A DNA stretch of 62,996 nucleotides, the filler included. It is 11 parts of 11 records of this genome, joined end to end, with 100 filler letters (N's around TTAATTAATTAA, not from the genome) between each part and the next. Parts side by side here need not be neighbours in the genome. Positions count along the whole stretch, not along the records: positions 25,053 to 32,615 come from SRR7504441_13531; 10 more parts are not named here. The stretch is one strand, 5' to 3'. A model generated the notes under the pieces. That model made no database searches. It saw only the letters and a program-made list of their open reading frames with translations, and was not told where the DNA came from. Below are positions 18,298 to 35,852 of this stretch, piece by piece. Position 1 is the first letter of the stretch. Every line of letters starts with the position of its first letter. Position numbers and translations under genes: made by a program.

Positions 18298-21200
18298 GAG
18301 GTATTTGCCCGACTCGGCTTCCAGGTTATGCACCCGTCCTTCTTGCAGGTTCCACTTGGAAGATAATCCGACCAGCCTCACGGCCTGGCCAGGGTCCAGT
18401 GCTGCTTGAGTGGCCGGATCTGCTTCAATGGCCGGATCTGCTTCAGTGGCCGGATCCCCCATTCCCATGCCCATATTCTCTGGCTCCTGCGGCGTGTTGC
18501 GTGACATTACGCAGGAGTAAGCGTGCATCACTGGCGGTTGCTTCTTAACGACAGCTTCCGCTGCTTGCTGGAGGGCAAGGTCCAAGCCCGTATGGTCGAT
18601 AGGTACACCTGTTTTGATGGCATTTGCTAGAATCACACTTGGGGTGCCACAGACTGGACAGCTGAGGCTCTCGGGAGGTATTACTGTCCGCTCCGAGCAG
18701 CGCATACACATCTCAGGAGCACCGTGAATTAATGACAAAGCTGTAAGCGGGGCCCAATGTGGATAGCCCAACGTGTACCACCAGACTAGCACCTGTGGAA
18801 AGCCCGAGCTAACTGCGAGCACGACCCCAGAGCTTCCAGAGGGCACCAGCCCGAAGCTGGCACCTGGGGCCATGCGGATAGGCATCCCTGGCTTGAGCAC
18901 ACCCAGCAAGTATCTGCACGCCAGCCAGTCAGGAATTCACCAATGCGGCCTCACTCTTTGAAGCTTTCTTCGTCCCCAAAGTGTGTCAGTTGAGATGGCA
19001 GCAGGGACAAGCCAGGCAACTGCATGACCCCGAACCATTCCAGTGAACAGAACGTGGCTTGAGCGAGTTTCTGGCCAGAAAGCACGAGCTTCAGTACCGA
19101 GCATGCACCAACATCTGTGGTGATCTGCAAGCAAGCAGTCAGTGAACGCAACCAAGAATGTCAGGCAACCGGAATCACAAGCTGTGCGACTGATGAGGTG
19201 GATTCGTGATTGTACTTCCAGTTGACGTGAGCCGACTGCAGCTCGCGGGTGGGCACGTAGTAGTCTAGCAGTCCCGCATCACCATAAAGTGTGAAATCCA
19301 CATCTTCGATAGAACCTTTCTCCATTTCGGTCCAGCTCCATGGGGCGAGACCCACTGAGGCGTGCACACTCGCGCCGGGGTTCAGGCCTCTGATGCTGAT
19401 ATGGGCCTCGCGCGGGGTGAACATGACCCCGGGATGAAGCACAAACCGAAATTCTAGGGGATTCGACACGTAATCCCGGTTTGAAGCACGAACCGAAACG
19501 CCTTCCAGACAAATATTACACGACTCAGCAACATCTTCACAGAAAACACCAGCTTTCCACACTGAAGTCGGGTTGCCAGGCTCCAGAGGGTTGCTCCATT
19601 CGTTCTGTGGTTGACCTCGTCGGCCAAGAAAAGAGAACAATCCCTCGCAGTGGTTAACTCCTGCTGCTACCCCTGCTGCATCTTCGGCTGCTGCAGCAAT
19701 CGGCTCTGCTGCAGGAGGATGTAGGGGAATGCTTGATCGCTTGGCCAGCAGCTGCACAATGTAATAGATCGACGCCTCCAACCGAGCAAGACGGCGGGTG
19801 CACATATCTCGGTCTGTAACAAAGGAATCGACTTAATCTATTACAGCAGGGCGCAAGGCACCCGACTTTGCGGCGCAGTTTAATCCATCGTAGTAGGACG
19901 CACAGTAGCAGCTCTGGACAACAACAATGGCTTCCGTAAGTACCCAGAGTGTATGCTCATCAGTCAAATCTTTGAGGCATGTCTGCAGCTTTTTAAGAAG
20001 AGAGAGGGCCGCGAGCATTCGCTTGGCAGCAATCCTATGGCATGCAAGAGTTCCTCCATCTTCCTCAGACATCGTATAGGCATCTTTCCGACCCTGCTTT
20101 GCAACTTCGTTGAGGATCTCAGGGGTATGGTCACGAGCCACATTGTGGCCAGCCCAGCTGCCATTAGAACAGTGAGTACGCGCGCACAACAGAAGCTAAC
20201 TCACGGGCGTAGACAGTCCCAACAGAATTGTCCTCCACAGCCTCCTGGGGGTTTACAGACCATGTGAGGACATCCTGCACAAAAGTGTCTCAGCATTCAG
20301 CAAAGGAGCTTAGCAGACCGGTAAATCTGTGAGTCAGTCTCTGGCAAAATGGACACCTTTTGCAACTGTCTGCCAGCATGCGAACAGTGGCTTCATCGGT
20401 CTCATTCTCTTGGAGCTGTACGTGTGAATCCATCTGGGCGATGGCCTTGCAGCTCGCTGGGGCATGGTGGAGATGCGTGTGGCCCTGCGCCATGCGCTTC
20501 CATGCGCATTGCCAGCACCAACGATGCCCGTTTCCACACTCTACTGTCAGCCCATTGGGCCCGGTAGGGCGCTTCTTCATCTCGGAACTTAGCTGGACGA
20601 CACACTTGCAATCAGGGAATGGGCAGAACTGATACTCCGGTGCAGCTTCTACGAATCGTTTCGCATTGAGTTCATCGTACTTTTCAAGCTTCTCAGCAGA
20701 AAGATACTGCGCCAGGATTTTCCTTGGAAGCAACTCCAGGCAGCCCTGCCCGCTGTCAATGTCAAATCCGGGACACGAGATGGAGGTCAAATCTTCCTCG
20801 CTTTGGCATTCTATTTGTCTCTGCAAGCAGTCAGTGCAGAATCTGTGTCGTGACTGGCATGAAACCATTGCATCTGGGGCAACTTCGACACAACATATCA
20901 GACACTCGTTCTCCCCAGAGTTGGATACATCAGGCTCGGCCGAGTCGGTCAGAAAGAGGTTGCCGGTCACAAACGGTGAAGTTACCCGTTTGAGTAACCC
21001 ATCAGGCCGTTGAAGGACAGTCTTAGCATGCTCTGGATCCGCTTGGCATGCTCGAAAGACCGCGTCCTTATCAAACCTGTGGTGACGGAGTAGTGCAAGG
21101 GCGTCATGTCGGTGTATTTTCAGATGATCGGCCACCTGTTGCGCCATCCCTTGTTGCACGGTCCCTGCTTCTGTGATGTCGAGCTGTCGCTCACCAACAG

Positions 21201-24200
21201 CAAGACGCTCAAGAGCCCTCGAGGGTATGTATGAAGTCGCGCGCTTAAGTGCAGAGGGCTCTGTCTTGGCTTTCATACAAAGCCATTTGCAGTCACTCCA
21301 GGCAATCGCAAAAAGAAGAACGCCCAGTAGAGATAAGGTCCCAAATTGTAGGGCTCTTGTCGCATATTCAGAGTCTGAGCTTTGCTCGGCCACAATTGCG
21401 CAGCTGCAGGCCCACAGTCCGATTGCAGTTGTGATGGCTCTTGTATACTCGAATGGATGCAACTGCCATGCGAAGATGATAAGAGACAGCAGAGCAATGA
21501 TGGCCGAGACGAGGAAAAAGAGAGGGGAAGCGTGATGTGTTGAGACAATTGCTAATGTCACAACAAGGAATAGCTTTATGTTTGCCAGTCCAGTCAGCAA
21601 CAACGGCTGCTGACGTCTTGAGGATGCATGCTCTGCCAACCAGTGCACAGCGGGGTAGATGCAAACGCACACGAGATGATAAACTGTCACCACAAAGAAG
21701 CCAACAGTAGCCAGGCCCTTCTGCTGTGCCGAGAGACACGTTTCAGAGCTGTCTCCAGACATAGTAGTGCCTGACGCTGTTGATGAGCAAGACCAAGTCA
21801 ATGAGATGGTATAAACCACTGGCAGGTAGCATGTGTAGCAGCCAAGATGCATAACTAGGACCACAAAATCACGTGCCAATCCAGTGCCAGGAAACACCAT
21901 TTTGTGATGCAGATATGGCGTCACGAGTGCGCAGCATATAAGTACAATGAGAACTATGGCACAGCAAAGTCCAAAGAGGAGCTGAAAGTTTTCATCCGAC
22001 CAGTTGTGAGGAAACTTGAACAGAAATATCTCGAAAAAACTCTGATGAAGATCATGTCCATCGTCCCAACCGGACACGCTGACAACTGCGAGGGCAATGA
22101 ACTGAATCGCGTCAACAAGCATGAGGACAAATCCCAAGAAGGAGAATAAACAATTCACATTTCCTGCATTGGCCCGAGCAGCTGGCTGCTCGTGCAACAC
22201 TCGATCAAGAAAGTCTTCGAACATAAGATAGCCACTCTTGTACCATACGCCTGCCGTGAGTGTCTGCTCAACCTCATCAGTGGTGAGGCAGCTGTATCCC
22301 ACAAGTCTTCTCGTCAAGACATGAAGTTCTCGGGCGCATATGACTGCACTCACATTATCGTCACCAGTGGCCCTTCTTTCTGTCTGTGCAACATCTATGA
22401 AAAACTGGAACAGCGTCTGCCTAGGACTCCACGAAGTGGCGGCCTTCAGTGCAAGAACTCGCCATATGTTGCCTGTTCCGAGGCCAAATGCATGACATGT
22501 GTTGTTGAATGTCTCAGCAAGAGACCTTCGACAATCTATCACGTCCTGTCCCTCCTCTATGGTACTGGAATCAGCAACTACTGGGGCAGTGCCACAGAGT
22601 CCACCGTGGTCGGCCATCCATTGATGGGTAAGCTTAAACCTTGTACCGTAGCTTTCATGCTGCGTTAATATGCAGTTGGCATTCAAGTAAGCCCCAATGC
22701 TCTCGACATCCGCAAGTTCCTCACCATCAGATACTGAGCGCTCCATGAGACAAGGTCCCCTCACGATGTGGCTTAGGGTGAGGTAATCGGCAGAAACAGC
22801 ACACGTATTCTTAAAGGCCAACTGCAATTCCTCCACCAATAAAGCGTGACACTCGCCGTCTGAAAAGGCCTGGTTAAGATATAAGATGGACCACTCTCCA
22901 CATAGATCGACTATGTTGTCGGGTCGATTGGGCAGAATTGCCTTCAACATTGCTTGAATCTGTAGCCCAAGCAGCAATGCAGTAGCGATCGTAAAGTAAA
23001 GCACCAAATCGCAACCAAGCATCCAGTTCGTGAAGTAGTCACTATCAGCAAGGCACTGGTACGGAATAAGTACTGCAACTGGGAAGAGAAGAAATATGCC
23101 CACATGGTGCAGAAAGCAGAATGGCGAAGAGATAATGAAAGCATACCCAGGCATGTCGAGATCAGGCTGGTGCCGTGCCGTCAGCACGAAAAGTGCCATC
23201 AGCACAAACACCACCATGATTCCGGCCATTCCGCTTATTGTGGCCAGCAGAGCTCCTTTCAGCGGTGCCGAAATGTCCGCTGCCAGCGCCACAGGCAGAA
23301 GAATCACGAGTGGCACAGCAACACAGCACACGACCTGAGCTATCCACAACATCAATCTGCTCGACTCACGTTCTCTCTCGCCCTGGAATTCAATACCGTC
23401 GTTCCACATGACTATTGCTCCTGTGAGCAGATGGCACAGTAGTGCAGCCGGGAGCACGCCAACTGCAAGCACGCCAAATGCACCGACGGTCTCGCTGTTC
23501 TGATCGGCTCCATGTAGGCCAAACCCGAACATAACCTGGGCAGCGACAATGAGACACAGGCATACGAGCCCTGCGATGGCCCGGTATCGATCTCGCCCAA
23601 CAAACATGCTGTCCTCGAGAGGAGAGCGTAGAAGTTTGAGAGCAAGCCACAGCAGCAGCAGCAGCCCGGAAGGATTTGCACACAGGATGATGCACCGTGT
23701 TGTCCAGCTCTCGTCCAACGCCAAAAACATGGGCAATTGCAGCGCGAGCGGCACGATGCCGCAAGAATAGATGGCAAGTGTTAGTGGATAGGTCACATCA
23801 ACGAGCCCGACCTCGGCACCCTGTATCATCCAGCTGGTTGCCGCCCCGAGCACAGGAATCACGTACGTCAGCAGAGCCAGTGTGACTACTACGAACCCGA
23901 GCCCACCCGCCTGGGAGCCTGTCATGGACACTGAAAATAGAACCGGCACTCCGATCACGGTGAAGAGGAAGGATAAGCATCCCAAACCCATCATCATGTA
24001 CACTCTGCCCTCCCCATCGGACTCACCAATTACCCCACCGCCCCAGCCCACAGCGAGGTACACGAGAAGTACGAGCGAGAGAAATATTCCAGCCATCACC
24101 ACGCCTTGGCCCAGGTTGGTCAGCCCTGAGCCCCAGCCCACCGCAGCTGCGAACACCATCAGGAGCAGGCACGGAGACACCGCCACTGGCAGGAATGTCC

Positions 24201-24952
24201 GCTCGATAAAGCCTTCAGTCAGCACCACCGCGCCCATCTGCACCGGGCAACAGAAATACAGAAGCGGAACTACTGCAACACTCAGCAATCCCAGTGAGAG
24301 CAGGCCAGCACGGAAGAGCCAGTCGCGCACTTCCCCATCGAGCGCCATCGCGATCGGTGCCACGACGAACATCGGCGTCGCACAGAGCAGCAGCGACGGG
24401 ATCAGGCACGAGCGCATCATGATCCGGATTTCACCAGCCCCCTCGTCGTCCTCGTTCGTCAATGCGCCGAACGTGTAGAAATTGTTGGTGATTTGTACTA
24501 CGCAGCCGGCCGGCAGGAGCACCCCCAACGCCGTGAGCACGCCAGAGGAGGTGTCGTCCAGCCCGGCGGCCAGGCCCACTGGCAGCAGGACCAGCAGCGG
24601 CAGTCCCAAGCAGCAGATCAGTCCAATGACAATGATCACCGCGGCCCCCACATCCCCCCCGTCAACCATCAGCACCGCACACAGCGTCGCCAGCCCGCTC
24701 GATACGATCGGCCCAGCGGTCACGCAGACCATCGTGGTCCTGCCACCCAAGCCTGATCAGCGGCAGCAGCCGCAAGCTGCCACCTGAGCGCGGCGGTCCA
24801 CCACGCGTCGGTGTCCGCCATCCGGATCGTGAGCTCGAGCCCGGCAATGGATCCGGCCCAGGCCAGGGTGACCAGCACCAGCGCGAGCCGACATGGGCGG
24901 GGCCATTCCCACCGCTGCAGCACACAGCCCGTCCACAGCCCGAAGATTACCA
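18298..24952 (-). CDS. Giant polytopic-membrane RBR (Ariadne-like) E3 ubiquitin ligase, truncated at both contig ends
   Basis: More than 20 hydrophobic segments; UBA-like ALALLRHHRFD; RING1 CLICC..C..RHRFCTDC..CPG; IBR CPFPDC..C.NGHRWCWQC..H.PASC; RING2 KRCPFC..TG|CPHMVC..C..FCWDC; further spliced exons downstream. Confidence 0.8.
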
Positions 24953-25227
24953 NNNNNNNNNNNNNNNNNNNNNNNNNNNNNNNNNNNNNNNNNNNNTTAA
25001 TTAATTAANNNNNNNNNNNNNNNNNNNNNNNNNNNNNNNNNNNNNNNNNNNNGAGCACCGAGCCGGCCAGCGACGGGAACAGTATCACCGGCGTCACTTG
25101 GGCCATTCTGTGCAGTACTCGTCACACCATCGAGACGGAATCCCAACAGGCAGCTTCAGGACACGCTTCGGCGCAGCTGCAGCGGGCAAGCCCAGCACTG
25201 AGCACCGAGCCGGCCAGCGAGGACAGC

Positions 25228-26010
25228 ATGGCTCTGCGGTTCCAGCAGCGTGTGTGCGTGGTGACAGGCGGTAGCGAGGGGATCGGGCTGGCGGTGGCGC
25301 GGCAGATGCTGTGCGAGGGTGCCGGTGCGGTGCTCATCTGTGGTCGGTCCGAGGAGAAGCTGGACCAGGCTCGGCAGGAGCTGGGGCACGACCGGCTGCA
25401 CACCGTCCGCTGCCACATCGGCCGGCCGGACGACCGGCAGCAGCTGGTCGAGGCGGCCAAGGCGCTGGTGGAGAGCTCGGGGCTGAAGGAGGGCGGGCTG
25501 GTACTGGTACTGAACGCAGCCATCTCGCCCCCGATCCCGACCATCATGGACACTAGCCCGGAGGCCTTCAGCAAGATCCTGAGCACCAACGTGGTGGCCC
25601 AGCTGGCGATCGCGCAGCAGTTTGAGAGCGAGCTGGCCGACACGGGGGCCCCGCTTCGTTCGGTCTGCCTGGTGTCCAGTGTGGGCGGCTACATGCCCGG
25701 GGCGCCGCACCCGGCCTATTCTGTTTCAAAGACGGCTCTGTTTGGACTCACCCGAGCGCTGGCAGAGGAGATGGCCCCGGAGGTGAGAGTCAACTGCGTG
25801 GCGCCCGGTGTGACAGAGACCCGGTTCAGCCAGCCGATATGGGCCAACGAGAGCATCAAGGAACTGATCGAGGCCCGCAGCCTGCTCGGGCGGCTAGCCA
25901 AACCAGAGGAGGTGGCGATGCCGGTGTGTTTCCTGTGCTCGGACGACGCCAGCTTCATTACGGCCGAGGTTCTGGTGATAGCCGGTGGCATGCCCGCGGC
26001 CCGATTGTGA
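25228..26010 (+). CDS. Short-chain dehydrogenase/reductase, DHRS4-like, probably peroxisomal
   Basis: TGGSEGIG, LNAAI, YSVSK catalytic motif, RVNCVAPG, C-terminal ARL PTS1. Confidence 0.92.
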   Translation: MALRFQQRVCVVTGGSEGIGLAVARQMLCEGAGAVLICGRSEEKLDQARQELGHDRLHTVRCHIGRPDDRQQLVEAAKALVESSGLKEGGLVLVLNAAISPPIPTIMDTSPEAFSKILSTNVVAQLAIAQQFESELADTGAPLRSVCLVSSVGGYMPGAPHPAYSVSKTALFGLTRALAEEMAPEVRVNCVAPGVTETRFSQPIWANESIKELIEARSLLGRLAKPEEVAMPVCFLCSDDASFITAEVLVIAGGMPAARL

Positions 26011-26234
26011 TAAGATTATGCCTCATCGTGGCCATTTGTGCGGCGGAATTGTCGCATGAACAAGCTGCTCAAAGTTCATTAATAATAAACATTAATATTA
26101 CACTGAGCGCCGAATGCTTGCTTAGATATTGATCCCATTTCCCGCCCGTGCTTATTGATCCCATTTTCGCGGCGTCGCGGCACTGAAAACCGTTGTGGCC
26201 GTTGCCGACTGTTACCGTACCGGTGGTGCCGGGC

Positions 26235-29200
26235 ATGCCGAAGCGGCGCTGCGCGGTCAATGCGTCCTCGCCTACTGCAGCGGCGGGTCGCGTACTGCTG
26301 CAGACACACCACGGAAGCTGGTTGCAAATGACGGACGGTGAACTGACGCACAAGGCAGCCTCGAGGCACGAGGCTACTGCGCTCAGCGTCAGCGAGGATG
26401 GCCGATCGCTCACCGTGGATGACCAATTGCTGTCTGTCTCCAAATCTCGGCTAGTGCTCGGGGCCTGCAACCCTGCTGAGCTAAAGATAGTGGACCTGGG
26501 GAACAATCAGGTGGCGCTGCAATGTACTACGGGCTACGCGAGCGCGAGGAAGAACGGTGGGCTCACATGTGGAACTGGAGGTGTACGTGGCTGGGAGAAG
26601 TTTACGAAGCATTTGCCAGCACCGGCAATCACAGCGCAGACAGATGTCAGGCTCGAGCCGCCCGAGGATGTTCCTGCTAGCGACATCTCACAAAGTCGCA
26701 AGAGACAGCGACGATTGCTCACCCAAACAGCGAACGAGCAAGAATTAGAGGCGACTGATGAACATCTTTTGAATGGGGGTAGGACCGGTGATTGCTGTTC
26801 GGGCACCAAGCCGGTGGTGGTGATAGAGCCGTTGCCACGAAGGCTGCTGCGCCCACCGCATCCAGCGCTGCCGGTCGAGCCGACAGCCCAGCGCGTCATG
26901 GAGGCAGACAATGGAGACGCTGGTGGGAGGACTGATTTAAGCGAGGAGAACGCCGACCTGCTAGACGAGCAGCTGAGTCCAGCAGGCGATTCATCGCAGC
27001 ATGGTGCAATTCCACAGCTTTGGGACTGGGCAAACTGGGCCATGGTTGGTCTTCTGGTAGTGGTAAATTTCCCGGAGGGGCAAAGCGGATCATCAGAGCC
27101 AGGCGACTACGAAGGGTGACTGATTGCATGCAGCTTACTTGATGCATGTGTGCCTCAGGTACGTGGAACACTATGATCCCGATCTCGTTAGTGATCTGAA
27201 CGAAAGGTGGAAGCTGAACTTTGGCCCGAGCAACGAGTTAGAGGATGAATATTTTGACTATCACTTTGTGCAAAAAGCAATTCGAGACCATAGGGAAGAG
27301 ACTGCTGGAGCGAATCCTGTATCGTTTAAGTCTCTGTTTCGTGACCACCAGGAAGTGTGTACACAAGCTCATGAGGCATGGGGGCATGCCTGCATGCATT
27401 ACCAAGAATGGATCTTGGAGGCAGGGAAACAGCACTGCTGCCAGAAGGTGAGCATGCCTCCTGCCACAGTCTGTAAGTTGGAGCTGGCAGTTCTACGTCC
27501 AGCGTGTCGTGGCAGCTGGACCTGGTGTTGAAATGCACCGAGTAGTGTTCCAAGTTAAGGTTAGAGAGCACACCCGGCTTACATGGCTTGCCAAGGATTT
27601 CATGGAGGATCAGCTGTCCATGTCAAAATGTGATTTTTTTTACGAGTGCGTGCTGGTGTCCTAAGCTACCCCTGATGTCAGTTTGTGGTGCAGGAAAAAA
27701 CTATCTGCAGCTAAACGCAAGCAGATCGAAGAAGAGCTGCAAGCGGTATGCCGCCAAAAGTCTAGAGCCACCATACGGGTGAGTGGCTTTGAGCACTGCC
27801 CGGATGGTCTGGATGCTGGTGACAGCGAGGAGTGGTTCGGGCAGCTCAGCAATCTGTTGGACAGCGCTCCGCAAGCCGTGGCCCCACTTGCCCAGGAGAT
27901 GAATTTGCTCCCTAGTGTGGTCGACAGGCGTCGGAGCTGGCGCACCAATATTGAGTGGGTCGATGAACATGAAATGGCAGAGTGGGGCTCAGAACGTCCT
28001 TGGGATAGTGCGCTCCTTGGGATAGTGCGCTCCGTCTTTGGACACAGCGATTTTAGATCATGTCAAAAAGAGATATGCAATGCTATGCTTGATGGCATGG
28101 ACTGCATTGTACAAATGCCAACCGGTGTGTGCCCTAAGGCCAGTCGGAAACAAAGTTGCATGCATATTTGGATGCCAGGCATGTTCTGAGTGTATGGGTG
28201 TAGGGGCTGGTAAGTCTTTGCTGTATCAGCTCCCAGCGCTATATAGCTACATGAACATTCGACAAAGCTTTACAGTTGTCATAACTCCGCTGAAGTCGCT
28301 GAAGAGCGATCAAGTGAACCAGGTGTGTATCTAAAACGCCGTCTCGATCCTATTTCCAGGTGAACCAGAAGATACGACGTTCATCGAGGGGACGCTGTTT
28401 CCCTCATGGCGCTGCCTTTAGCCTTGAAGGCGGGTTGGGGCGGCAGCAAATGCAGCACATACTCTCAAATTTGACCAACAAGCCAATTCCATTGTTGTAT
28501 ATGACACCAGAGAAATTCATGACCTTCGATGTCAACCGTTTTCTGAAGCAGATGCATACAAAAAAGCTCATATCAAGATTTGTGGTCGACGAATTCCAAG
28601 TGGTTTCAGAGCATCAGGACTTTCGTGACTCCTACACCAAACTTCGCCTGAAACACGATTTTGATAGTGTACCTATTTTGTGTTGCAGTGCCACTGCAGA
28701 TGCGTCGCATGTTGGCTCTTGTCACCATGTACTCGGGCTTCAAGATTGTAAATTTTTCCGAGGAGACATGCAACGCTTCAACATCTCAATTCATACTGAG
28801 ATGATGTTCCGTGCGATGTCAAAAAATCCCAACAAGATCCGTGAGAATCTTCCAAGAGTTGCTGAGCTTTTACGGCGCCACAAAGATGAAAGCTTCATCG
28901 TTTTTGTGATAAAAAAAGTAGAAGCCGTGCTCTGGTCTTCGGCACTACAAAAAGAGGGATTTTCTGTCGACTGGTATCATGGGACTCCACCAGGTGCCAC
29001 TGATATTGAGCGCATGCGCATAGATGATCATCGGGCGTGCGTCCAAGAGCGGTGGAAAACTGGCAAGTTGCATGGTGTGGTTGCCACATCATCGTCGTTT
29101 GGGTTAGGGATCGATAAAGAGAATGTGCGCTGTGTGATTCATGTTGGGCTGCCAATCTCTCTAGCAGCTTGTTACCAGGGCTTTGGAAGAGCGGGTCGAG

Positions 29201-32200
29201 ACGGCAAACCAGCTGACGCATATTTGCTCTTTGACCATGACGACTTTGGAGTTTGGAAAACCATCAAGCGAAACTGCCCTGCCCCTGTGTGGGCTGCCAC
29301 AGCAAGTGGGCTACGGGACCTTCTTAGATTTTGTCACGATAAGAATACTTGCCGGCACAAGGCATTGATTCGTGCTATACAATGCCAGCAGAGCATACGA
29401 CTATCAGACTTGGCAGAGTGTGCACCAGACGATCCGAGGTGCGATGTCTGCCAGAGGCAGAAATCTGGTAAAGAGCTGGTTGAAATCACACAGCATGTCC
29501 AGTCGTGCTTCAATAAGCTTGTCGCCAAGTTCAACTCAACTGAGTTGGGGTCGAGTGAGAAAGCTGTCAAATCAGTGTTTGACTGCAGCTCCTTTCTGCA
29601 TGGCAACGGCCAAGACTTGGCTCATACCCTCGTTCGTCTCTTGGATCGCGTAATCGGCGCGATTCATCGGCCAGATAGGAGTACATGCTACGAAGTGGTA
29701 CCAGATGCCCAAAGCAAACTCAGCAAACACCGCTTCTTCATAGAGTGGGTGGCTGGCCAAGAATGGAATGTTCCCACCCCAGCAGCATTTAGTGTGCCAG
29801 AAGTCAGCCCAGTGCCAGCACTCAATCTGTATGAGCAGCAACGCATCGACAATATCACCAGAAATCATGCCTACATGATGAATTTAGGTCTGGGCCCTGG
29901 AGCAAGCAGCGAACAGCATGATGATACTATCTACAATGTTACGAGTCTTATCCCAGAGCCAGAGTCGAGCCAACATGTGTGGGTATCTCAATTGTCATAT
30001 GATTTAAGATTCGAGGTTGAATCAATCCTGCTGGAATGGGGACTTTCATGGAAGAGATTCAAGGCAGCAGACCTGAAAACCTTCGTGCAGAATGGAAATG
30101 GGAGCCCCTCGGAAGCTGCGGGCAAGCTTATTTCTGCATCAACAGGCATCGATTGCGGACCCTGGCGGAGATATTGCCAGCATTCCAATGATGAAAGTAT
30201 TTTCTTCACTTTTCACGGTAGTATTCAACCTGTAGGCCCCACAGGGAAGCATAGAAACAATGGCAACAAGTTCGAGTTTCGCCTCAAAGCACCGATTCGT
30301 TCAAGACCAAAACGAGCTTACCGAAAGTTTGGCTACAGCCGATTCCTCAGGCTATCTGTAGGGCAAGGCTGCGACAGCGCATCTATAAAGTCATATTTGC
30401 GTGAGATTCATGACTCAGGTGGGCTACTTATTGGTGGTAGGAACTTCAAGCTCTTGAGTGTGGATGCATCCAATAGTGACAGTGGCCCCAAAGGTAACAG
30501 CAGAGGCACGTTGGTATTCTTTGCAGAGAGCGGGCCAGGCTTAAACACAATCGAAGTCTCAGAAGTTCAGGAGTGGCACCAACCCTCATGCTTTTGGCAG
30601 CAAGACCTGCCGATGCGCAAGTTCTTGAAGCGGCAATCCTTAATGACCTCGGATGTAACACCGACATGCATTGTATCACATGTGCACATGTCCGAATTAC
30701 CGGACATCGTGTCTGTACAGTCCGGGGCGGCCATGACTGACGGGTCCGCGCCCATTTCCGAACGCTTGATGAAGCGGATCGCTGACCACCTACCTGAAAG
30801 GCCGGGTTCGTGCCTTCCAAGTTTGGTGCAAATGCGGTATGCAGGGCTCAAAGGAGTCTTGTACGTGGACAGTGAGCTTCAGGACGAAACACTAAATTAC
30901 TGCCCCTCTATGCAGAAAATAATTCACAGCGCTGTTGGCATGTGTGAAGAGCAGCAGCGACTAGAAGTGTGCCGAGCAGAGTACCCAACAATGCCACCGT
31001 CTAAGTTGAACGTGGAGAGCATCCAGCTGCTAGAAGGCAGAATGAAAGATGGAGCAGCAGAGGAAATATTTAGCGAGCTGCTTGAACAGGACATTAGTCA
31101 GCTCAGATTGTGCCTCGAGAATGCCGAAGCTGCCAAGGAAATGGTGAGACTCAGAGACGTGCACAGTGCATCATCTGGGGGCGAGTTTGAGCAGCGTGTG
31201 TCCGACATGCTTCGTGCTGGCTTTGAGCCAGGCAGTTGCATCTTCCTCAAAAGATGTCTGCAACAGCTAGTGCTTTGGCGACTAGAAGAACTCCGTGAAA
31301 AATTTAAGATTACGGTGCCCGAGTCCTGCAGGTTTCAGCAATGCCTCCTTCCTAATGCGCAAAATTTGCACTCTATCCCCTAGCCTCCCTTCTCCTCTCA
31401 TTTTTCTCTGCAGGCTCACCATAACCGAGGACCGACAAGGGATCTTGAAACCAGATGAGTGCTTTATAAACCTCGGTGGCCGGTTGGGGTTACTCACTGC
31501 AGACGAGAATCCAGCAGGCGTAGTCCTGATGAGAAATCCAAGTTATCAGCCAGGAGACATTTTGCACCTCAAGTTAGTGTCGGGTGCTCGGGCTCGGGAG
31601 CTCTCCAGTCGTTTTAGACATGGCCCGGTGTGCATGCTGTCGACACAAGGGAACAGGATGATTGCAGACATGTTGTGTGGCGGAGATTGTGACGGCGATA
31701 AGCCGTGGGTGTGCTGGCATCAGCGCATCGTGTGTGCAGTGCTGCATGTCAGACCCACAGATGAGATGGTGCCAATCCAGCGAAGTATTTTTGTCTCAAC
31801 CAACCCGGCTGAGCGTCGCGAGGACATGATAGAATTCTTTTGCACAGCTATACTCCGCGACACCCTTGGGTCATTAGTGAACAAACTCAGATGGGCTGCT
31901 GACGAGCTGGGAGCTGACGACCCAAAGGTGATCGAGATCGCTAAGTTGTGTATGCAGCAAGTGGACACCCCGGATGAGCCAATAAAGCCACCAGAATGGT
32001 TGGCTGATCTGCAATGCCCACATTGGGATAAGAAAAATAGCAAACATGGAGAACCGAGGCAGAGTAACAGAGTGCTGGGAAAGCTCGCAAACCAGATTGA
32101 CGGAGAAATCGGCGAAGTCGAGTCTCTGGTGGTGACTCAAAGTGATTTGCAAGTCGATCCAGACCTGTGCTCTTGTACTGTGGACAGCGTGATGCAAGAG

Positions 32201-32551
32201 ACAAGACAAATGCTGGATAGATTCAGGCAAAAGTGGAGGGAATGGGATGAAAGTGGGAATCGGGGCAGGAGTATTGCACTCTGGGAGCGGGAGGTCATGA
32301 GCGAAGAGCTATCCAAATCCCAGTCTCATGACAAGCTGAGAGCGATTGCTTCCTGTGCGTATAAGCAAACACTAGAGCAAGTAAGGACGAGAGCAGGCAA
32401 AGACGACGTACTTCAGCTACGTGCTGTTCACAAGTATGTTGCATGTTGCTGGAGTCCAATGTTGCCATGGCTGTGCCGAATCAAGGCAGACAGCATCGAG
32501 CAATCGTCTGGCAGAGGCATCGCAATCTCAGTAGCTAGGCGGGTGGGCTAG
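26235..32551 (+). CDS. RecQ helicase - RNA-dependent RNA polymerase fusion protein (about 1,994 aa, 7 exons)
   Basis: Exons 26235-27115, 27159-27447, 27491-27645, 27694-28124, 28204-28322, 28360-31331, 31414-32551 (all GT-AG; total 5,985 nt, in frame). RecQ: FGHSDFR, MPTGAGKS, TPEK, VVDE, SATA, FGLGIDKENVR, GRAGRDG, Zn CRH..CDVC. RdRP: TDGSAPIS, QMRYAGLKGVL, RNPSYQPGD, GGDCDGD. Confidence 0.88.
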
Positions 32552-32961
32552 CACCACTTGAGTTTAACTTAGGTAGATGTGACATAGGCAGATGTGACAT
32601 ACTGGACATGTAAGANNNNNNNNNNNNNNNNNNNNNNNNNNNNNNNNNNNNNNNNNNNNTTAATTAATTAANNNNNNNNNNNNNNNNNNNNNNNNNNNNN
32701 NNNNNNNNNNNNNNNAAGGCAAATCGTTACAAAAGTTACTCAAAAAGGGAATTTGTTACGTAACATTACGCAGAAGTTACTGCTTGTGCTGCTGTGCTGG
32801 GATCTTGTGCTGTGCTGGGATCTAGCCTACCGGTAGTGGCTGGCGGCTCTCCCTCTCTCTCGAGTAGAGTTGTGCTTTGGGTACTAAGCTAGTCTATCTG
32901 AGTTAAATGAAAAGGTAACGTGCAATTCGTTTATCAGGATTGGACTGAATGGACTCCTATA

Positions 32962-35852
32962 TCAAGTGGATGCTTCTGCGAGCTCGAGCCTCAGCCGCTC
33001 AATCTCTTGATCCTTTCGCTCCAGCTGCTCCGTGAGCGCTTCGACTAACCTCAGCTGCGAGTCCGTGACTCCATCATCAAACTCATCCTTAGCTCTAGTG
33101 GCAGCCGTAACAGCAAAGTCCCGCGCGTCCGGCTCAGCGCTGCCCATGACCTTCTCAAATCCTGACCGATCGACCGGCAGCCCAATCAGCCGCTTAGAGT
33201 GCAGCAGCCCGTGCTCCACAGCGTAAGAAAACAGCGCTTCGCACGCAGCCGACTGCACAAATCTACCGGACAAGAGCACAACGCACGCATCGCTGTGTGG
33301 GTTGAGCCGGGCGCATGCCTCGTACCATTCAAATTCATCCGCTTGAATCAACTGATCTGTTGGATCGGAGCTGTTCCCGTCACGTGCCATCGACCTGCGC
33401 GTCACCTCAATCCTCGAAAACGCCTGGCCGCGCTCGTTCTGTGCGGTCAGCGCGGCCGCTAGCGCGGCGGCGTGCTTTCTGTCGTGAGAGTCGAACAGGA
33501 AAAGCACCCGGGTCGAACTCGGGGTGGCGGGGGCCTCCTCAGCGGCCTCTGCCCGGCTCCTGGGCGACAGTTCATGCAACAGCATTCTGACGTCTTCCCC
33601 CAACGACCCCTCAGGTGGGATGCTGGCCGTTGGCAGGATGCGCAGCATGCTGGTCAGGCAGCGATACTTGGGCACTCGCTCGCGCGTGAGCGCCGCCTCC
33701 GTCTTGTCTCGCTTCACGTGACTCCTGATAGCTTCGGCCACCAGCCCTACATGCGCGCTGTTCAACTGCAGATCCTCATTCGCTGGCACGCGGTTCGCAC
33801 GAGACAGCAGACAACTCAGGAAAGGGTGCGTGGCGGTCCCGTATCGTGGCAGCGACAGCCGGACTGGCAAGAGCCCAGGGTGCGGCCCGCACCGGTACAG
33901 AGACCCGTGCAGCGCTCGAATGCACGCGTGATCGTCGTACAGCGCGGGCGTGACCAACGGAAGAATCACGGGCGCCGCACGCAGCTGCGCTTGACTCTCT
34001 GAGCTCTGGCTGCTCTCGGCCGTCATAGCCGTTACAGTCATCCCGTGCAGCTCTTTCAACAAGCTGCAGAGCTTTGTTGCAGCCGGTTTGTCCGTTACTG
34101 CACACAGCACCACCCCGAGCAGCTGACTCCCACAGCACTCGGCCAGATGGGCGCCCAGCGCGTCCCCAAGTCGTACAAAGTTCGCCCAAAACTGGTCGAA
34201 AAAGCTCATTTCGTGCGTAAACCTGAACTGCTCGGCTGCGGTCAGTCCGGCGTAGAGGCCGGCACGGGCCACTTGAGCCGGGTCCTCCGACTGGGCCAAC
34301 TCACCCAGTGCAAGCCGCCACTCCTGCTCGTCTGCTATCACGCCTGCAAGCCACAATCTCACGATGCGTGCAGGCGCGCGCACTGAATGTGGGCATCTGG
34401 AGCTCGGCCGCTCTCCGGACTTCGTCGTGGCATGCCCCAGAGCCGAGCATTGAAGCCGAGATGATCGGCAGGAAGGCGCTCGATTGCTCCAGTTCTCCAA
34501 AGTACCACTGCCGCCAGTCATGCCCCGGAGGGACCTGCCAGCCGCTTCAGAGGGCTGTGCTGACGGAGCGCGCACCATGGTGCCATCCTTGGTTACAATC
34601 CCTACAGCCGCCAGGCACCGCGCCAGCCGCTTCATCTGCATCACGTGCGTAGATCTGTAGCTAATCATCGCGAATCCTGTGTGAGCGGGCACAGCTGGTA
34701 TCCGGAGCTCGTGCTGCGCGAAGAACGCGTGTCCCAGGACGGTATCCATGCTCTCCGGCCGATCGAGCGGGTGCGGGTGCCGCCGTCTCTTGACGCTATC
34801 ATACCCATAGCTGCCCGAATTGCCCAGCAGGCACCACGCGATTAGATCTTGCGTAGCGAGCCGCTCAGCGGGAGAGATCAGCCGCAAGTGGGCCGCTTGC
34901 TTGAACACTTGGTCCAGCAGCGCTTGGTCGATCACGCTCCAATGCGCGAGCACGCTGGCGTCTGAATCGCTCCGACAGACGTCGTCGTTCAGGTCTTTGG
35001 GCAAGAAAGCAAGCCCGCTGCTCAGCTCGTAAAGCACCTACCCGCACAGACTCACACCAACAGGCATCCCGGCAGTATTATCAGTGTTAGCTGCACCAAA
35101 TTACTAGTTTGCGCACCACGCCAAACTGCCAGATGTCCTGCGCCACCGAGGCCTTGATCGTCGGCTGGCCGGGCTGCGGCCGCCCGTCCACACGGCCGGC
35201 GATCAGCCGCTGCTGCCACTCTGGCGGCAGATAAGCCTCGCTGTACTTCACTAAAGTCCCGCCATCGACCTCCACTCCGGCCCGCTCGGACCCGATACAA
35301 GCTGACGCGTCAAAGTCTATCAAAGACCATCCCATCTGGCTCTTGGTCTTGACAATATTCCTTGGCTTGAGGTCTGCCCAGTTAGTGTCACACCCCGTCT
35401 ATCGTGCTGCAGCCACCGCCATGGATCAGCCCGGCCTGATGCAAATGCCTCAGCCCCGTAGCCACCGCCCGGCAGATCCGCTGCACCCCCCCAAAGTCCA
35501 CCCCGGCGATCCAGCGCATCCTGATCTCGTCTTCCTGCCGTTAAATACAGTTAGAAATGCCGTTAGAAATGCCGTTGGGACCAGGCTCTTCTCGGCCCAT
35601 TCCATCACCAGCACGCACCGCCAGCCGTTGCTCTCGGCACCGGCCACCGGCACCAGCTTGCTCCCCAGCCCGAGCCCGGCCATCGCCTCGCACTCGGACT
35701 CGGGCACGTGTATTCGGATTATCCCGAGCACAGTGTCGGAGGCGGCTGGACTAAGCTGCTGACGGACTTGCACTTCCATACGCAGAAACGCCGTGGTTGT
35801 GCTCGTCTTAAGAGCCACCTGCGTGCCGTTAAATGCCGTTATAATGCGGTTA
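32962..35852 (-). CDS. Ser/Thr protein kinase with C-terminal TIR-like repeats, 5' truncated
   Basis: VALK, VLVMEWAE, HG|DLKPRNIV, LIDFD, DIWQFGV|VLYEL; downstream FAMISYRS, PVILPLVTP, VLFLFDSHD..CVVLLSGRFVQSAAC TIR_2-like segments. Confidence 0.75.

Follow-up and report, generated by a model that had tools for sequence, protein, structure and literature searches.

How repeated or damaged DNA is turned into the RNA that triggers silencing is an open question, and its only worked example is the pairing of a RecQ helicase with an RdRP (RNA-dependent RNA polymerase) in Neurospora. The stretch of DNA analysed here (the window) has 62,996 nucleotides and strings together 11 short contigs, set apart by N44+TTAATTAATTAA+N44 separators, and one gene on its forward strand raises the question of whether both enzymes may be combined in a single chain. 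An initial annotation, made from the letters of the window, had described this gene as a fusion of a RecQ helicase with an RNA interference (RNAi)-type RdRP, equivalent to QDE-3 plus QDE-1 of Neurospora. The source assembly is fragmented, with contigs of 3-10 kb; the gene lies entirely within one of them (25053-32615, 7563 bp), and it is no artefact of the separators, as the annotation had noted. We consider it very probable that this is a real protein-coding gene of an uncultured marine eukaryote and that the fusion is genuine. What appears new is the presence of RecQ and RdRP in one chain; helicase-RdRP fusions, and partnerships of RecQ and RdRP as separate proteins, are already known.

Gene model and domain organization

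The core of the gene is a stop-to-stop open reading frame (ORF) of 1021 codons at 28318-31383 that is unbroken over both the helicase and the RdRP domains, and the exon annotated within it (28360-31331) is free of stops, with the Pfam domains in place. On 28321-31383, Pfam finds DEAD (aa 35-127, 28.4 bits), Helicase_C (aa 179-295, E 3e-11) and RdRP PF05183 (aa 653-1004, profile positions 6-347, E 7e-48); on the ORF 31286-32551, it finds RdRP profile positions 348-582 (E 5.5e-33). Since the first RdRP match ends at position 347 and the second begins at position 348, the two exons abut to the exact profile position. In addition, the spliced junction over the intron 31332-31413 gives a gap-free alignment to the intronless relatives P0123, P0125 and P0129 (described below). 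The 82-nt GT-AG intron that had been proposed to lead to the catalytic exon is thus backed by both profile continuity and alignment, and the polymerase motifs lie where they had been placed (TDGSAPIS at 30736-30759, QMRYAGLKGVL at 30829-30861, RNPSYQPGD at 31532-31558 and DCDGD at 31685-31699).

RecQ motifs 0, I and Ia had been assigned to upstream exons, and they are indeed carried by two short exons, one running to 28124 and the other at 28204-28322. The gene model was joined by coordinates from the exons 27694-28124, 28204-28322, 28360-31331 and 31414-32551; it extends over 27694-32551, no stop interrupts its 1552 residues, and the motifs PTGAGKS, DEFQ, SATA, GRAGRDG and DCDGD are all present. 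The 5' edge of the exon with motif 0 is ambiguous, with an acceptor at 27693 or 27710 (start 27694 or 27711). Just upstream of motif 0, this exon contains a perfect 17-nt tandem duplication (TCCTTGGGATAGTGCGC x2) at 27997-28030; both copies are needed to keep the frame open, and the duplication has gap-free coverage by metagenome contigs of two runs. The annotated gene start at 26235 could not be confirmed: the upstream ORFs 26235-27119 and 27160-27447 had no Pfam match at E<=0.5 and no similarity to any protein collected in the analysis, and several splice combinations could connect them to the helicase exon.

The helicase half

Judged by its sequence, the helicase is unambiguously a member of the RecQ family of superfamily 2 (SF2) helicases, with motifs 0, I, Ia, II, III, V and VI present in order. 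Its best NCBIfam model is TIGR00614 recQ_fam, with which the partial window exon, taken without motifs 0-Ia, reaches 163.1 bits where the cut-off is 219.8; the relatives P0129 (259 bits) and P0123 (220.3 bits) pass it. The top matches of solved structure are BLM (E 8e-29), bacterial RecQ, RECQ1, RECQ5 and WRN, and the HMMER alignment to BLM extends through the cysteine cluster; the nearest named non-fusion RecQs are mite BLM and fungal MusN. The AlphaFold model of the exon has a mean predicted local distance difference test (pLDDT) score of 72.5, reaching about 90 for residues 20-380, and its fold matches RECQ1 (Z 27.4) and BLM (Z 26.8).

The zinc-binding residues C331, C361 and C364 are invariant in 6/6 fusions. 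The annotation had spoken of an RQC zinc cluster; the zinc-binding subdomain of RecQ is present, and the RQC part is not borne out by Pfam, which finds no winged helix. Structural alignments to RECQ1 and BLM do reach model residue ~460, the place of the winged helix, where pLDDT is below 50. Likewise, the Pfam set that had been expected was recovered for DEAD, Helicase_C and PF05183, while RecQ_Zn_bind was not reported for the window piece and is significant in the relatives P0123, P0121 and P0278.

The RdRP half

On profile and motif evidence, the RdRP half is a cellular two-barrel RNA-dependent RNA polymerase with an intact catalytic motif. Its two parts score 164.1 bits (profile 6-347) and 115 bits (348-582) with PF05183, whose cut-off is 23.8, and the catalytic DCDGD aligns with DYDGD of QDE-1, DLDGD of 7w82, and DYDGD of P0123, P0125 and P0129. 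With the exon model, which includes the first RdRP half, Foldseek matched QDE-1 (2j7n and 5fsw, E 2.1e-18) over about 520 columns; among the Foldseek matches listed, the RdRP structures are all QDE-1.

The join between the two halves

The approximately 230 codons between the domains are open, and the chance of this is (61/64)^230, or ~2e-5, if a stop frequency of 3/64 is assumed. The linker is predicted to be disordered over exon residues 411-529, with pLDDT below 50 at 411-488 and 508-529. Homology enters it, in that P0121 aligns over 29080-30006 and P0125 from 30133, and columns are conserved in it across all six fusions. The GC content at third codon positions (GC3) is even over the join, being 0.49 in the helicase, 0.48 in the linker, and 0.56 and 0.56 in the two RdRP parts. 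Because the frame is open, the fusion recurs in relatives, homology enters the linker and the composition is even, we take the fusion to be real.

Public DNA contigs from three runs of three studies provide 95-99% identical pieces from both halves and from the linker; a fourth sequencing run had no match to the gene. These variant contigs are of low depth (2-4), and single differences may be errors. Of 38 places that differ from the window, seven are in introns or the unassigned gap. The two large exons have 16 variants, 11 of which are synonymous, including both of those in the linker; the exon with the second RdRP half accounts for five synonymous variants and one non-synonymous variant. The exon with motif 0 has nine (five synonymous, four non-synonymous), and the two upstream ORFs have six, two of them synonymous (one synonymous and three non-synonymous in 26235-27119; one of each in 27160-27447). 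The synonymous excess in the two large exons is consistent with a translated frame under purifying selection.

Recurrence of the fusion in other protists

HMMER, run exhaustively against 1.84 billion representative proteins, returned 19482 matches. Six of the best 150 have two matched stretches, and by Pfam five of these six combine a RecQ-type helicase (DEAD/Helicase_C) with an RdRP in one called ORF: P0123 (1508 aa), P0125 (1392 aa), P0129 (1413 aa), P0132 (1577 aa) and P0145 (2167 aa). The remaining one is a RecQ of the ordinary kind, in which RQC and HRDC are present. The fusion members are 24-31% identical to the window protein and derive from independent metagenomes or collections (Logan, ENA and JGI assemblies). 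The P0125 cluster has four members on four contigs, and the P0129 cluster has five full-length JGI members as well as fragments of two Picozoa single-cell genomes (EukProt); the Picozoa fragment P0278 (712 aa) contains DEAD, Helicase_C, RecQ_Zn_bind and the start of the RdRP in one ORF. Closer fragments, P0121, P0122, P0124, P0126 and P0128 (42-58% identical), between them cover the helicase, the RdRP and some of the linker. By tblastn, the closest helicase-end fragment, P0122, is 58% identical, and the closest RdRP-start fragment, P0126, is 48% identical; the longest contig recorded for each is 2616 bp, and they may share one contig, which would be a further independent copy of the join.

Some relatives carry additional modules. 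Two Chromo domains and a GNAT acetyltransferase stand ahead of the fusion core in P0132/P0281, and a SET domain stands ahead of it in P0145. The linker of P0123 has a Cys-rich insert at residues ~560-640 that by eye resembles a zinc finger of PHD or RING type and has no Pfam match. The end of the P0281 ORF was considered as a shared intron position and dropped, as it lies about a dozen residues past the intron site of the window gene. The automatic names of the fusion relatives in public records are only "RecQ family ATP-dependent DNA helicase", so that the polymerase half has been overlooked there.

In a word-index search with the whole exon, the best 120 of 482 matches were all plain RecQs with no RdRP domain, words of the RecQ part having crowded out other candidates; the same search with the RdRP region of the window gave no match, and with that of P0123 it gave five proteins and no new RecQ fusion. 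A protein atlas search returned RecQ-like clusters only (scores <=0.86), and a metagenome locus scan with P0129 and P0145 returned eight loci that have ordinary RdRPs and no RecQ part.

Phylogeny and a probable common origin

In a careful tree of the helicase core (37 rows, without P0281, which has the longest branch), five fusions lie on one side of a branch with support of 98/98. They are separate from plant RECQL4A (BLM-type), insect RecQ1, RecQ5, fungal and bacterial RecQs and 13 unnamed RecQs; the helicase set has no QDE-3 sequence. A quick tree of 63 rows places all six fusions together (Shimodaira-Hasegawa-like approximate likelihood ratio test, 97). In a careful tree of the RdRP domain (14 rows), the six fusions group at 100/100 with P0290, a possibly truncated gene call of 841 aa that has an RdRP only; the outgroup of seven rows comprises four metagenome ORFs, two RdRPs of Mucoromycota and P0293, a helicase-RdRP of the Hef type. 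Because both halves co-cluster and linker columns are conserved, the sequences fit one old fusion event followed by divergence into a small, old family. The Rosetta-stone argument of the initial annotation, by which fusion points to joint function, is therefore legitimate: the fusion recurs in independent relatives, and its halves group together.

Comparison with known systems

In Neurospora quelling and in the production of QDE-2-interacting small RNA (qiRNA), where QDE-3, QDE-1 and replication protein A (RPA) act, the same two enzyme families cooperate as are joined in the fusion. In the parts of PMC2950127 available, QDE-1 performs much better as a DNA-dependent RNA polymerase than as an RNA-dependent one, with single-stranded DNA as its template, from which double-stranded RNA can be made; its interaction with RPA requires the RecQ helicase QDE-3; QDE-3 homologues unwind DNA 3'-5', with BLM named as a human homologue; and DNA damage induces RNAs that depend on QDE-1 and QDE-3. 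Among solved structures, the helicase half of the fusion is matched best by BLM and the RdRP half by QDE-1. On the other hand, the window gene encodes one polypeptide whereas the Neurospora proteins are separate, and unlike QDE-3 its helicase has no detectable RQC or HRDC, has DEFQ for DEAH, and has no aromatic-loop Trp. By sequence, nothing ties its RdRP specifically to the QDE-1 lineage. Two candidate assignments were accordingly dropped: the helicase as a QDE-3 orthologue, since it forms its own group in the tree and no RQC or HRDC was found, and the RdRP as a QDE-1 orthologue, since in sequence it is about as far from QDE-1 as from other solved RdRPs. What remains of the annotated equivalence is a RecQ-family helicase and a cellular RdRP in one chain, and not a supported membership of the QDE-3 and QDE-1 lineages; to equate the fusion with that pair is to draw an analogy, not to report a proven orthology.

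RdRPs are also coupled to a template-handing motor or polymerase at chromatin in the Schizosaccharomyces pombe RNA-directed RNA polymerase complex (RDRC; Rdp1, the helicase Hrr1 and Cid12) and in Arabidopsis Pol IV-RDR2. The fusion resembles these systems in this coupling, and RDR2 structures are among its weak sequence matches. However, those assemblies are multi-subunit and use another helicase class, whereas the coupling in the window gene is covalent and involves RecQ, with chromatin modules in some relatives. P0293 (1851 aa, Logan) joins different parts in one chain: its Helicase_C is of the Hef/Dicer type, its RdRP is full (492 bits), and a nucleotidyltransferase (MTPAP-like/NTP_transf_2) lies at its C-terminal end. 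The combination looks like the three RDRC activities (helicase, RdRP and Cid12-type transferase) in one protein. As an example of the Dicer/Hef type, P0293 matches Hef best (82 bits), has no recQ_fam match, and its RdRP falls outside the RecQ-RdRP group.

Helicase-RdRP fusions are described in Dictyostelium (Rrp), peronosporomycete oomycetes, Hydra and Nematostella (PMC4791657, in the parts available), and as in the window gene an SF2 helicase (DEAD and Helicase_C) lies N-terminal to PF05183. In those parts, their helicases are DEAD-box or Dicer-like, and the word RecQ does not occur; the helicase of the window gene is RecQ instead. This agrees with the annotation, which had stated that the known fusions use Dicer-type helicases and not RecQ. 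An association of RdRP with RecQ outside fungi comes from Entamoeba histolytica, in which EhRdRP1 and an Argonaute each pull down a RecQ helicase; as far as the available parts of PMC8546589 go, these are separate proteins, the pull-down is of low confidence and no mechanism is known. The available parts of PMC6396948 give RNAi amplification as the only known function of eukaryotic RdRPs and contain no passage about a helicase or fused domains, and those of PMC6896033 mention RecQ only with regard to telomeres. No single-chain protein of RecQ and RdRP was found in the literature searched, which covered few subscription journals; the annotation had likewise known of none.

Proposed function and alternative explanations

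The architecture, its intact catalytic motifs, its recurrence, the co-clustering of the halves and the variant pattern consistent with purifying selection are all observed, and the recurrence suggests that helicase and polymerase operate as one machine. With moderate confidence, we favour a self-contained helicase-polymerase of an old fusion family, which would open DNA and make silencing-trigger RNA from it in the way that QDE-3 together with QDE-1 does. The RecQ motor would bind and open DNA at repeats, recombination or damage intermediates, or R-loops, and translocate 3'->5' on one strand. A polymerase reads its template in this same direction, so that the tethered RdRP may copy the exposed strand into aberrant RNA; this would then become double-stranded and enter Dicer/Argonaute silencing. 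The protein probably acts in the nucleus on chromatin, given the Chromo and GNAT or SET modules ahead of the core in relatives. The DNA template, the silencing-trigger product, the nuclear location and any link to Dicer or Argonaute are all inferred. A broader proposal, which we offer only tentatively and regard as somewhat doubtful, is that RecQ-RdRPs are a hitherto unnoticed, ancient class of chromatin-targeted, DNA-templated RNA polymerases, the one-chain counterpart of QDE-3/QDE-1/RPA, Pol IV-RDR2-CLSY and RDRC, multi-protein machines that produce silencing triggers straight from DNA; a histone reader (Chromo) or writer (SET, GNAT) would be attached in some lineages. If this were true, DNA-templated synthesis of aberrant RNA by an RdRP would not be specific to Neurospora but a widespread, possibly ancestral route to heterochromatic silencing. 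A recurrent covalent fusion, sometimes with a histone reader or writer, gives independent support, by comparison across lineages, for a functional and old partnership; and as both activities are in one polypeptide, the coupling of DNA unwinding to RNA synthesis can be tested in vitro with no need to rebuild a complex.

Several results weigh against a DNA-opening helicase-polymerase of this kind. Motif II is DEFQ instead of DEAH in the window gene (DE[ACD]H in five relatives), and the Trp of the RecQ aromatic-rich loop is absent from 6/6 fusions, the consensus SQWGHDFR being replaced by SE-HQDFR in the window gene with D[FY]R retained. The aromatic-rich loop of RecQ couples the binding of single-stranded DNA to ATP hydrolysis, and the altered motif II together with the loss of Trp may mean that the DNA-coupled ATPase activity is altered. 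Pfam found the RQC winged helix and HRDC in 0/6 fusions. For the RdRP, phmmer distances are similar to QDE-1 (E 4.9e-6), 7w82 (4.5e-6) and Arabidopsis RDR2 (1e-4). The fusion branches are all long, and their grouping could partly reflect long-branch attraction; the RdRP outgroup is small and has no plant, animal or Neurospora (QDE-1) rows. The metagenome pieces are 151-880 nt long and none bridges the helicase and the RdRP (29560-30277), and transcript support is absent, with no RNA run among the sequencing runs that match the stretch. Finally, the gene has a GC3 of ~0.5, compared with 0.82 in a short-chain dehydrogenase (SDR) gene that lies 225 bp upstream in this contig.

Part of this evidence would suit a different template. 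The main alternative, which we consider unlikely, holds that the fusion is real but that its RecQ-derived motor handles RNA or RNA:DNA hybrids in RNA-templated amplification of small interfering RNA, feeding RNA templates or stripping products like Hrr1-Rdp1, DRH-3 with the nematode RdRPs, and the helicase-RdRPs of Dictyostelium and oomycetes. Helicase partners and fusions are common for RNA-copying RdRPs (fusions listed in PMC4791657, in the parts available), and the Trp lost from all six fusions, DEFQ in the window gene and the lack of any RQC or HRDC DNA-binding module found are all in its favour. However, the helicase is unambiguously of RecQ, a DNA helicase family, and is unlike the Hef/Dicer type of P0293; the Chromo, SET and GNAT additions suggest chromatin and not cytoplasmic RNA; and the sole RecQ-RdRP partnership studied experimentally acts on DNA (PMC2950127, in the parts available). 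It is also conceivable, if decidedly improbable, that the protein works in DNA repair or replication restart with no silencing output, for example in damage-induced RNA synthesis, priming or RNA-templated repair at stalled forks. Helicase-polymerase fusions do occur in repair, Pol theta being one, and RecQ helicases work at damaged forks. The QDE-1/QDE-3-dependent RNAs are damage-induced as well (PMC2950127, same parts). Against such a role, the chromatin reader and writer additions suit silencing better, and to our knowledge every characterised PF05183 member feeds small-RNA pathways. RNAi amplification is also the only function of eukaryotic RdRPs given in the available parts of PMC6396948.

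The base composition bears on whether the gene belongs to the host at all. GC3 is 0.48-0.56 in the gene and 0.64-0.82 in 9/10 of the other window ORFs measured, the relatives lie on short metagenome contigs (5-12 kb), and one lineage carries chromodomains, which some retroelements also use; a gene of a mobile element or virus, or a recent acquisition, that serves the element in replication or counter-defence rather than host silencing would explain these points. We nevertheless find this improbable, since the contig has no terminal or long inverted repeats (the longest repeat being 28 nt at 75%), no integrase, transposase or capsid domain was present in the ORFs tested, and scans of viral contigs with P0129 and the exon, which detect close relatives only, gave no relative. 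In addition, the clusters are on 1-2 contigs each and hence not high-copy, spliceosomal-type introns are present, and another ORF of the window, with an IBR domain, has a similar GC3 (0.58). That adjacent genes, or the DNA of two organisms, were joined by mis-assembly or an over-long model is nearly refuted. The fragmentation of the assembly (3-10 kb contigs), the lack of an independent contig of the same organism across 29560-30277 and the lack of RNA support would allow it; set against them are the 1021-codon ORF unbroken across both domains, the same join in five independent relatives and in the Picozoa fragment that spans it, the linker homology (P0121 to 30006, P0125 from 30133), the even composition and the synonymous linker variants. 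The annotation had proposed coverage over 29450-30250 as a check of the join; metagenome pieces of 95-99% identity with synonymous variants lie in the linker, and none bridges the domains. We retain, as plausible and preferred, the reading of a helicase-polymerase that would make silencing-trigger RNA from DNA.

Features of the locus and its surroundings

The coordinates of the features are collected in Table 1.

Table 1. Features of the contig that carries the RecQ-RdRP gene, in window coordinates
Feature	Position	Strand	Evidence or remarks
Short-chain dehydrogenase (SDR) gene; contig start inside gene	25054-26010		adh_short_C2 E 5e-43
Upstream ORF	26235-27119	+	Open frame; maybe 5' exons, a separate gene or non-coding
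Second upstream ORF	27160-27447	+	Ends at GTGAGC donor; candidate 5' exon
Exon with RecQ motif 0 (FGHSDFRSCQ) and first half of motif I (PTG)	27694-28124	+	phmmer E 2e-11 to RecQ proteins
Intron, 79 nt, GT-AG	28125-28203	+	Excision creates PTGAGKS; one metagenome variant inside
Exon with GAGKS (second half of motif I) and motif Ia	28204-28322	+	Pfam DEAD positions 20-64 (ORF 28029-28334)
Intron, 37 nt, GT-AG	28323-28359	+	Read from sequence; model remains open; alternative donor 28314 gives 46 nt
Helicase part of large exon	28360-29560	+	Pfam DEAD, Helicase_C; recQ_fam; BLM match; fold
Motif II, DEFQ	28588-28599	+	Helicase part
Motif III, SATA	28687-28698	+	Helicase part
Motif VI, GRAGRDG	29185-29205	+	Helicase part
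Zinc-binding cysteines	about 29329-29451	+	Helicase part
Inter-domain linker, same open frame	29561-30276	+	Partly predicted disordered, then helical segment
RdRP first half (PF05183 positions 6-347)	30277-31331	+	Pfam; Foldseek to QDE-1 2j7n E 2e-18
Intron, 82 nt, GT-AG, phase 2 (CAG/GT...CAG/G)	31332-31413	+	Gap-free junction vs intronless relatives
RdRP second half (positions 348-582)	31414-32551	+	DCDGD at 31685-31699; stop codon ends at 32551

An Rfam search of the window gave no match, and a repeat search of the contig found no transposon-like ends. Within the contig there is a sharp step in GC3, from 0.82 in the SDR gene to 0.48-0.62 over 26235-32551, and an AT-rich stretch at ~26060-26110 lies between the SDR gene and the fusion gene. 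Elsewhere in the window, the minus strand has an open frame of 1488 codons at 20293-24756 (GC3 0.58), whose only Pfam match is an IBR half-RING near the C-terminus (E 1.6e-7). On the next contig, a 691-codon open frame at 32965-35037, also on the minus strand, has a weak match to TIR_2 (E 1e-6).

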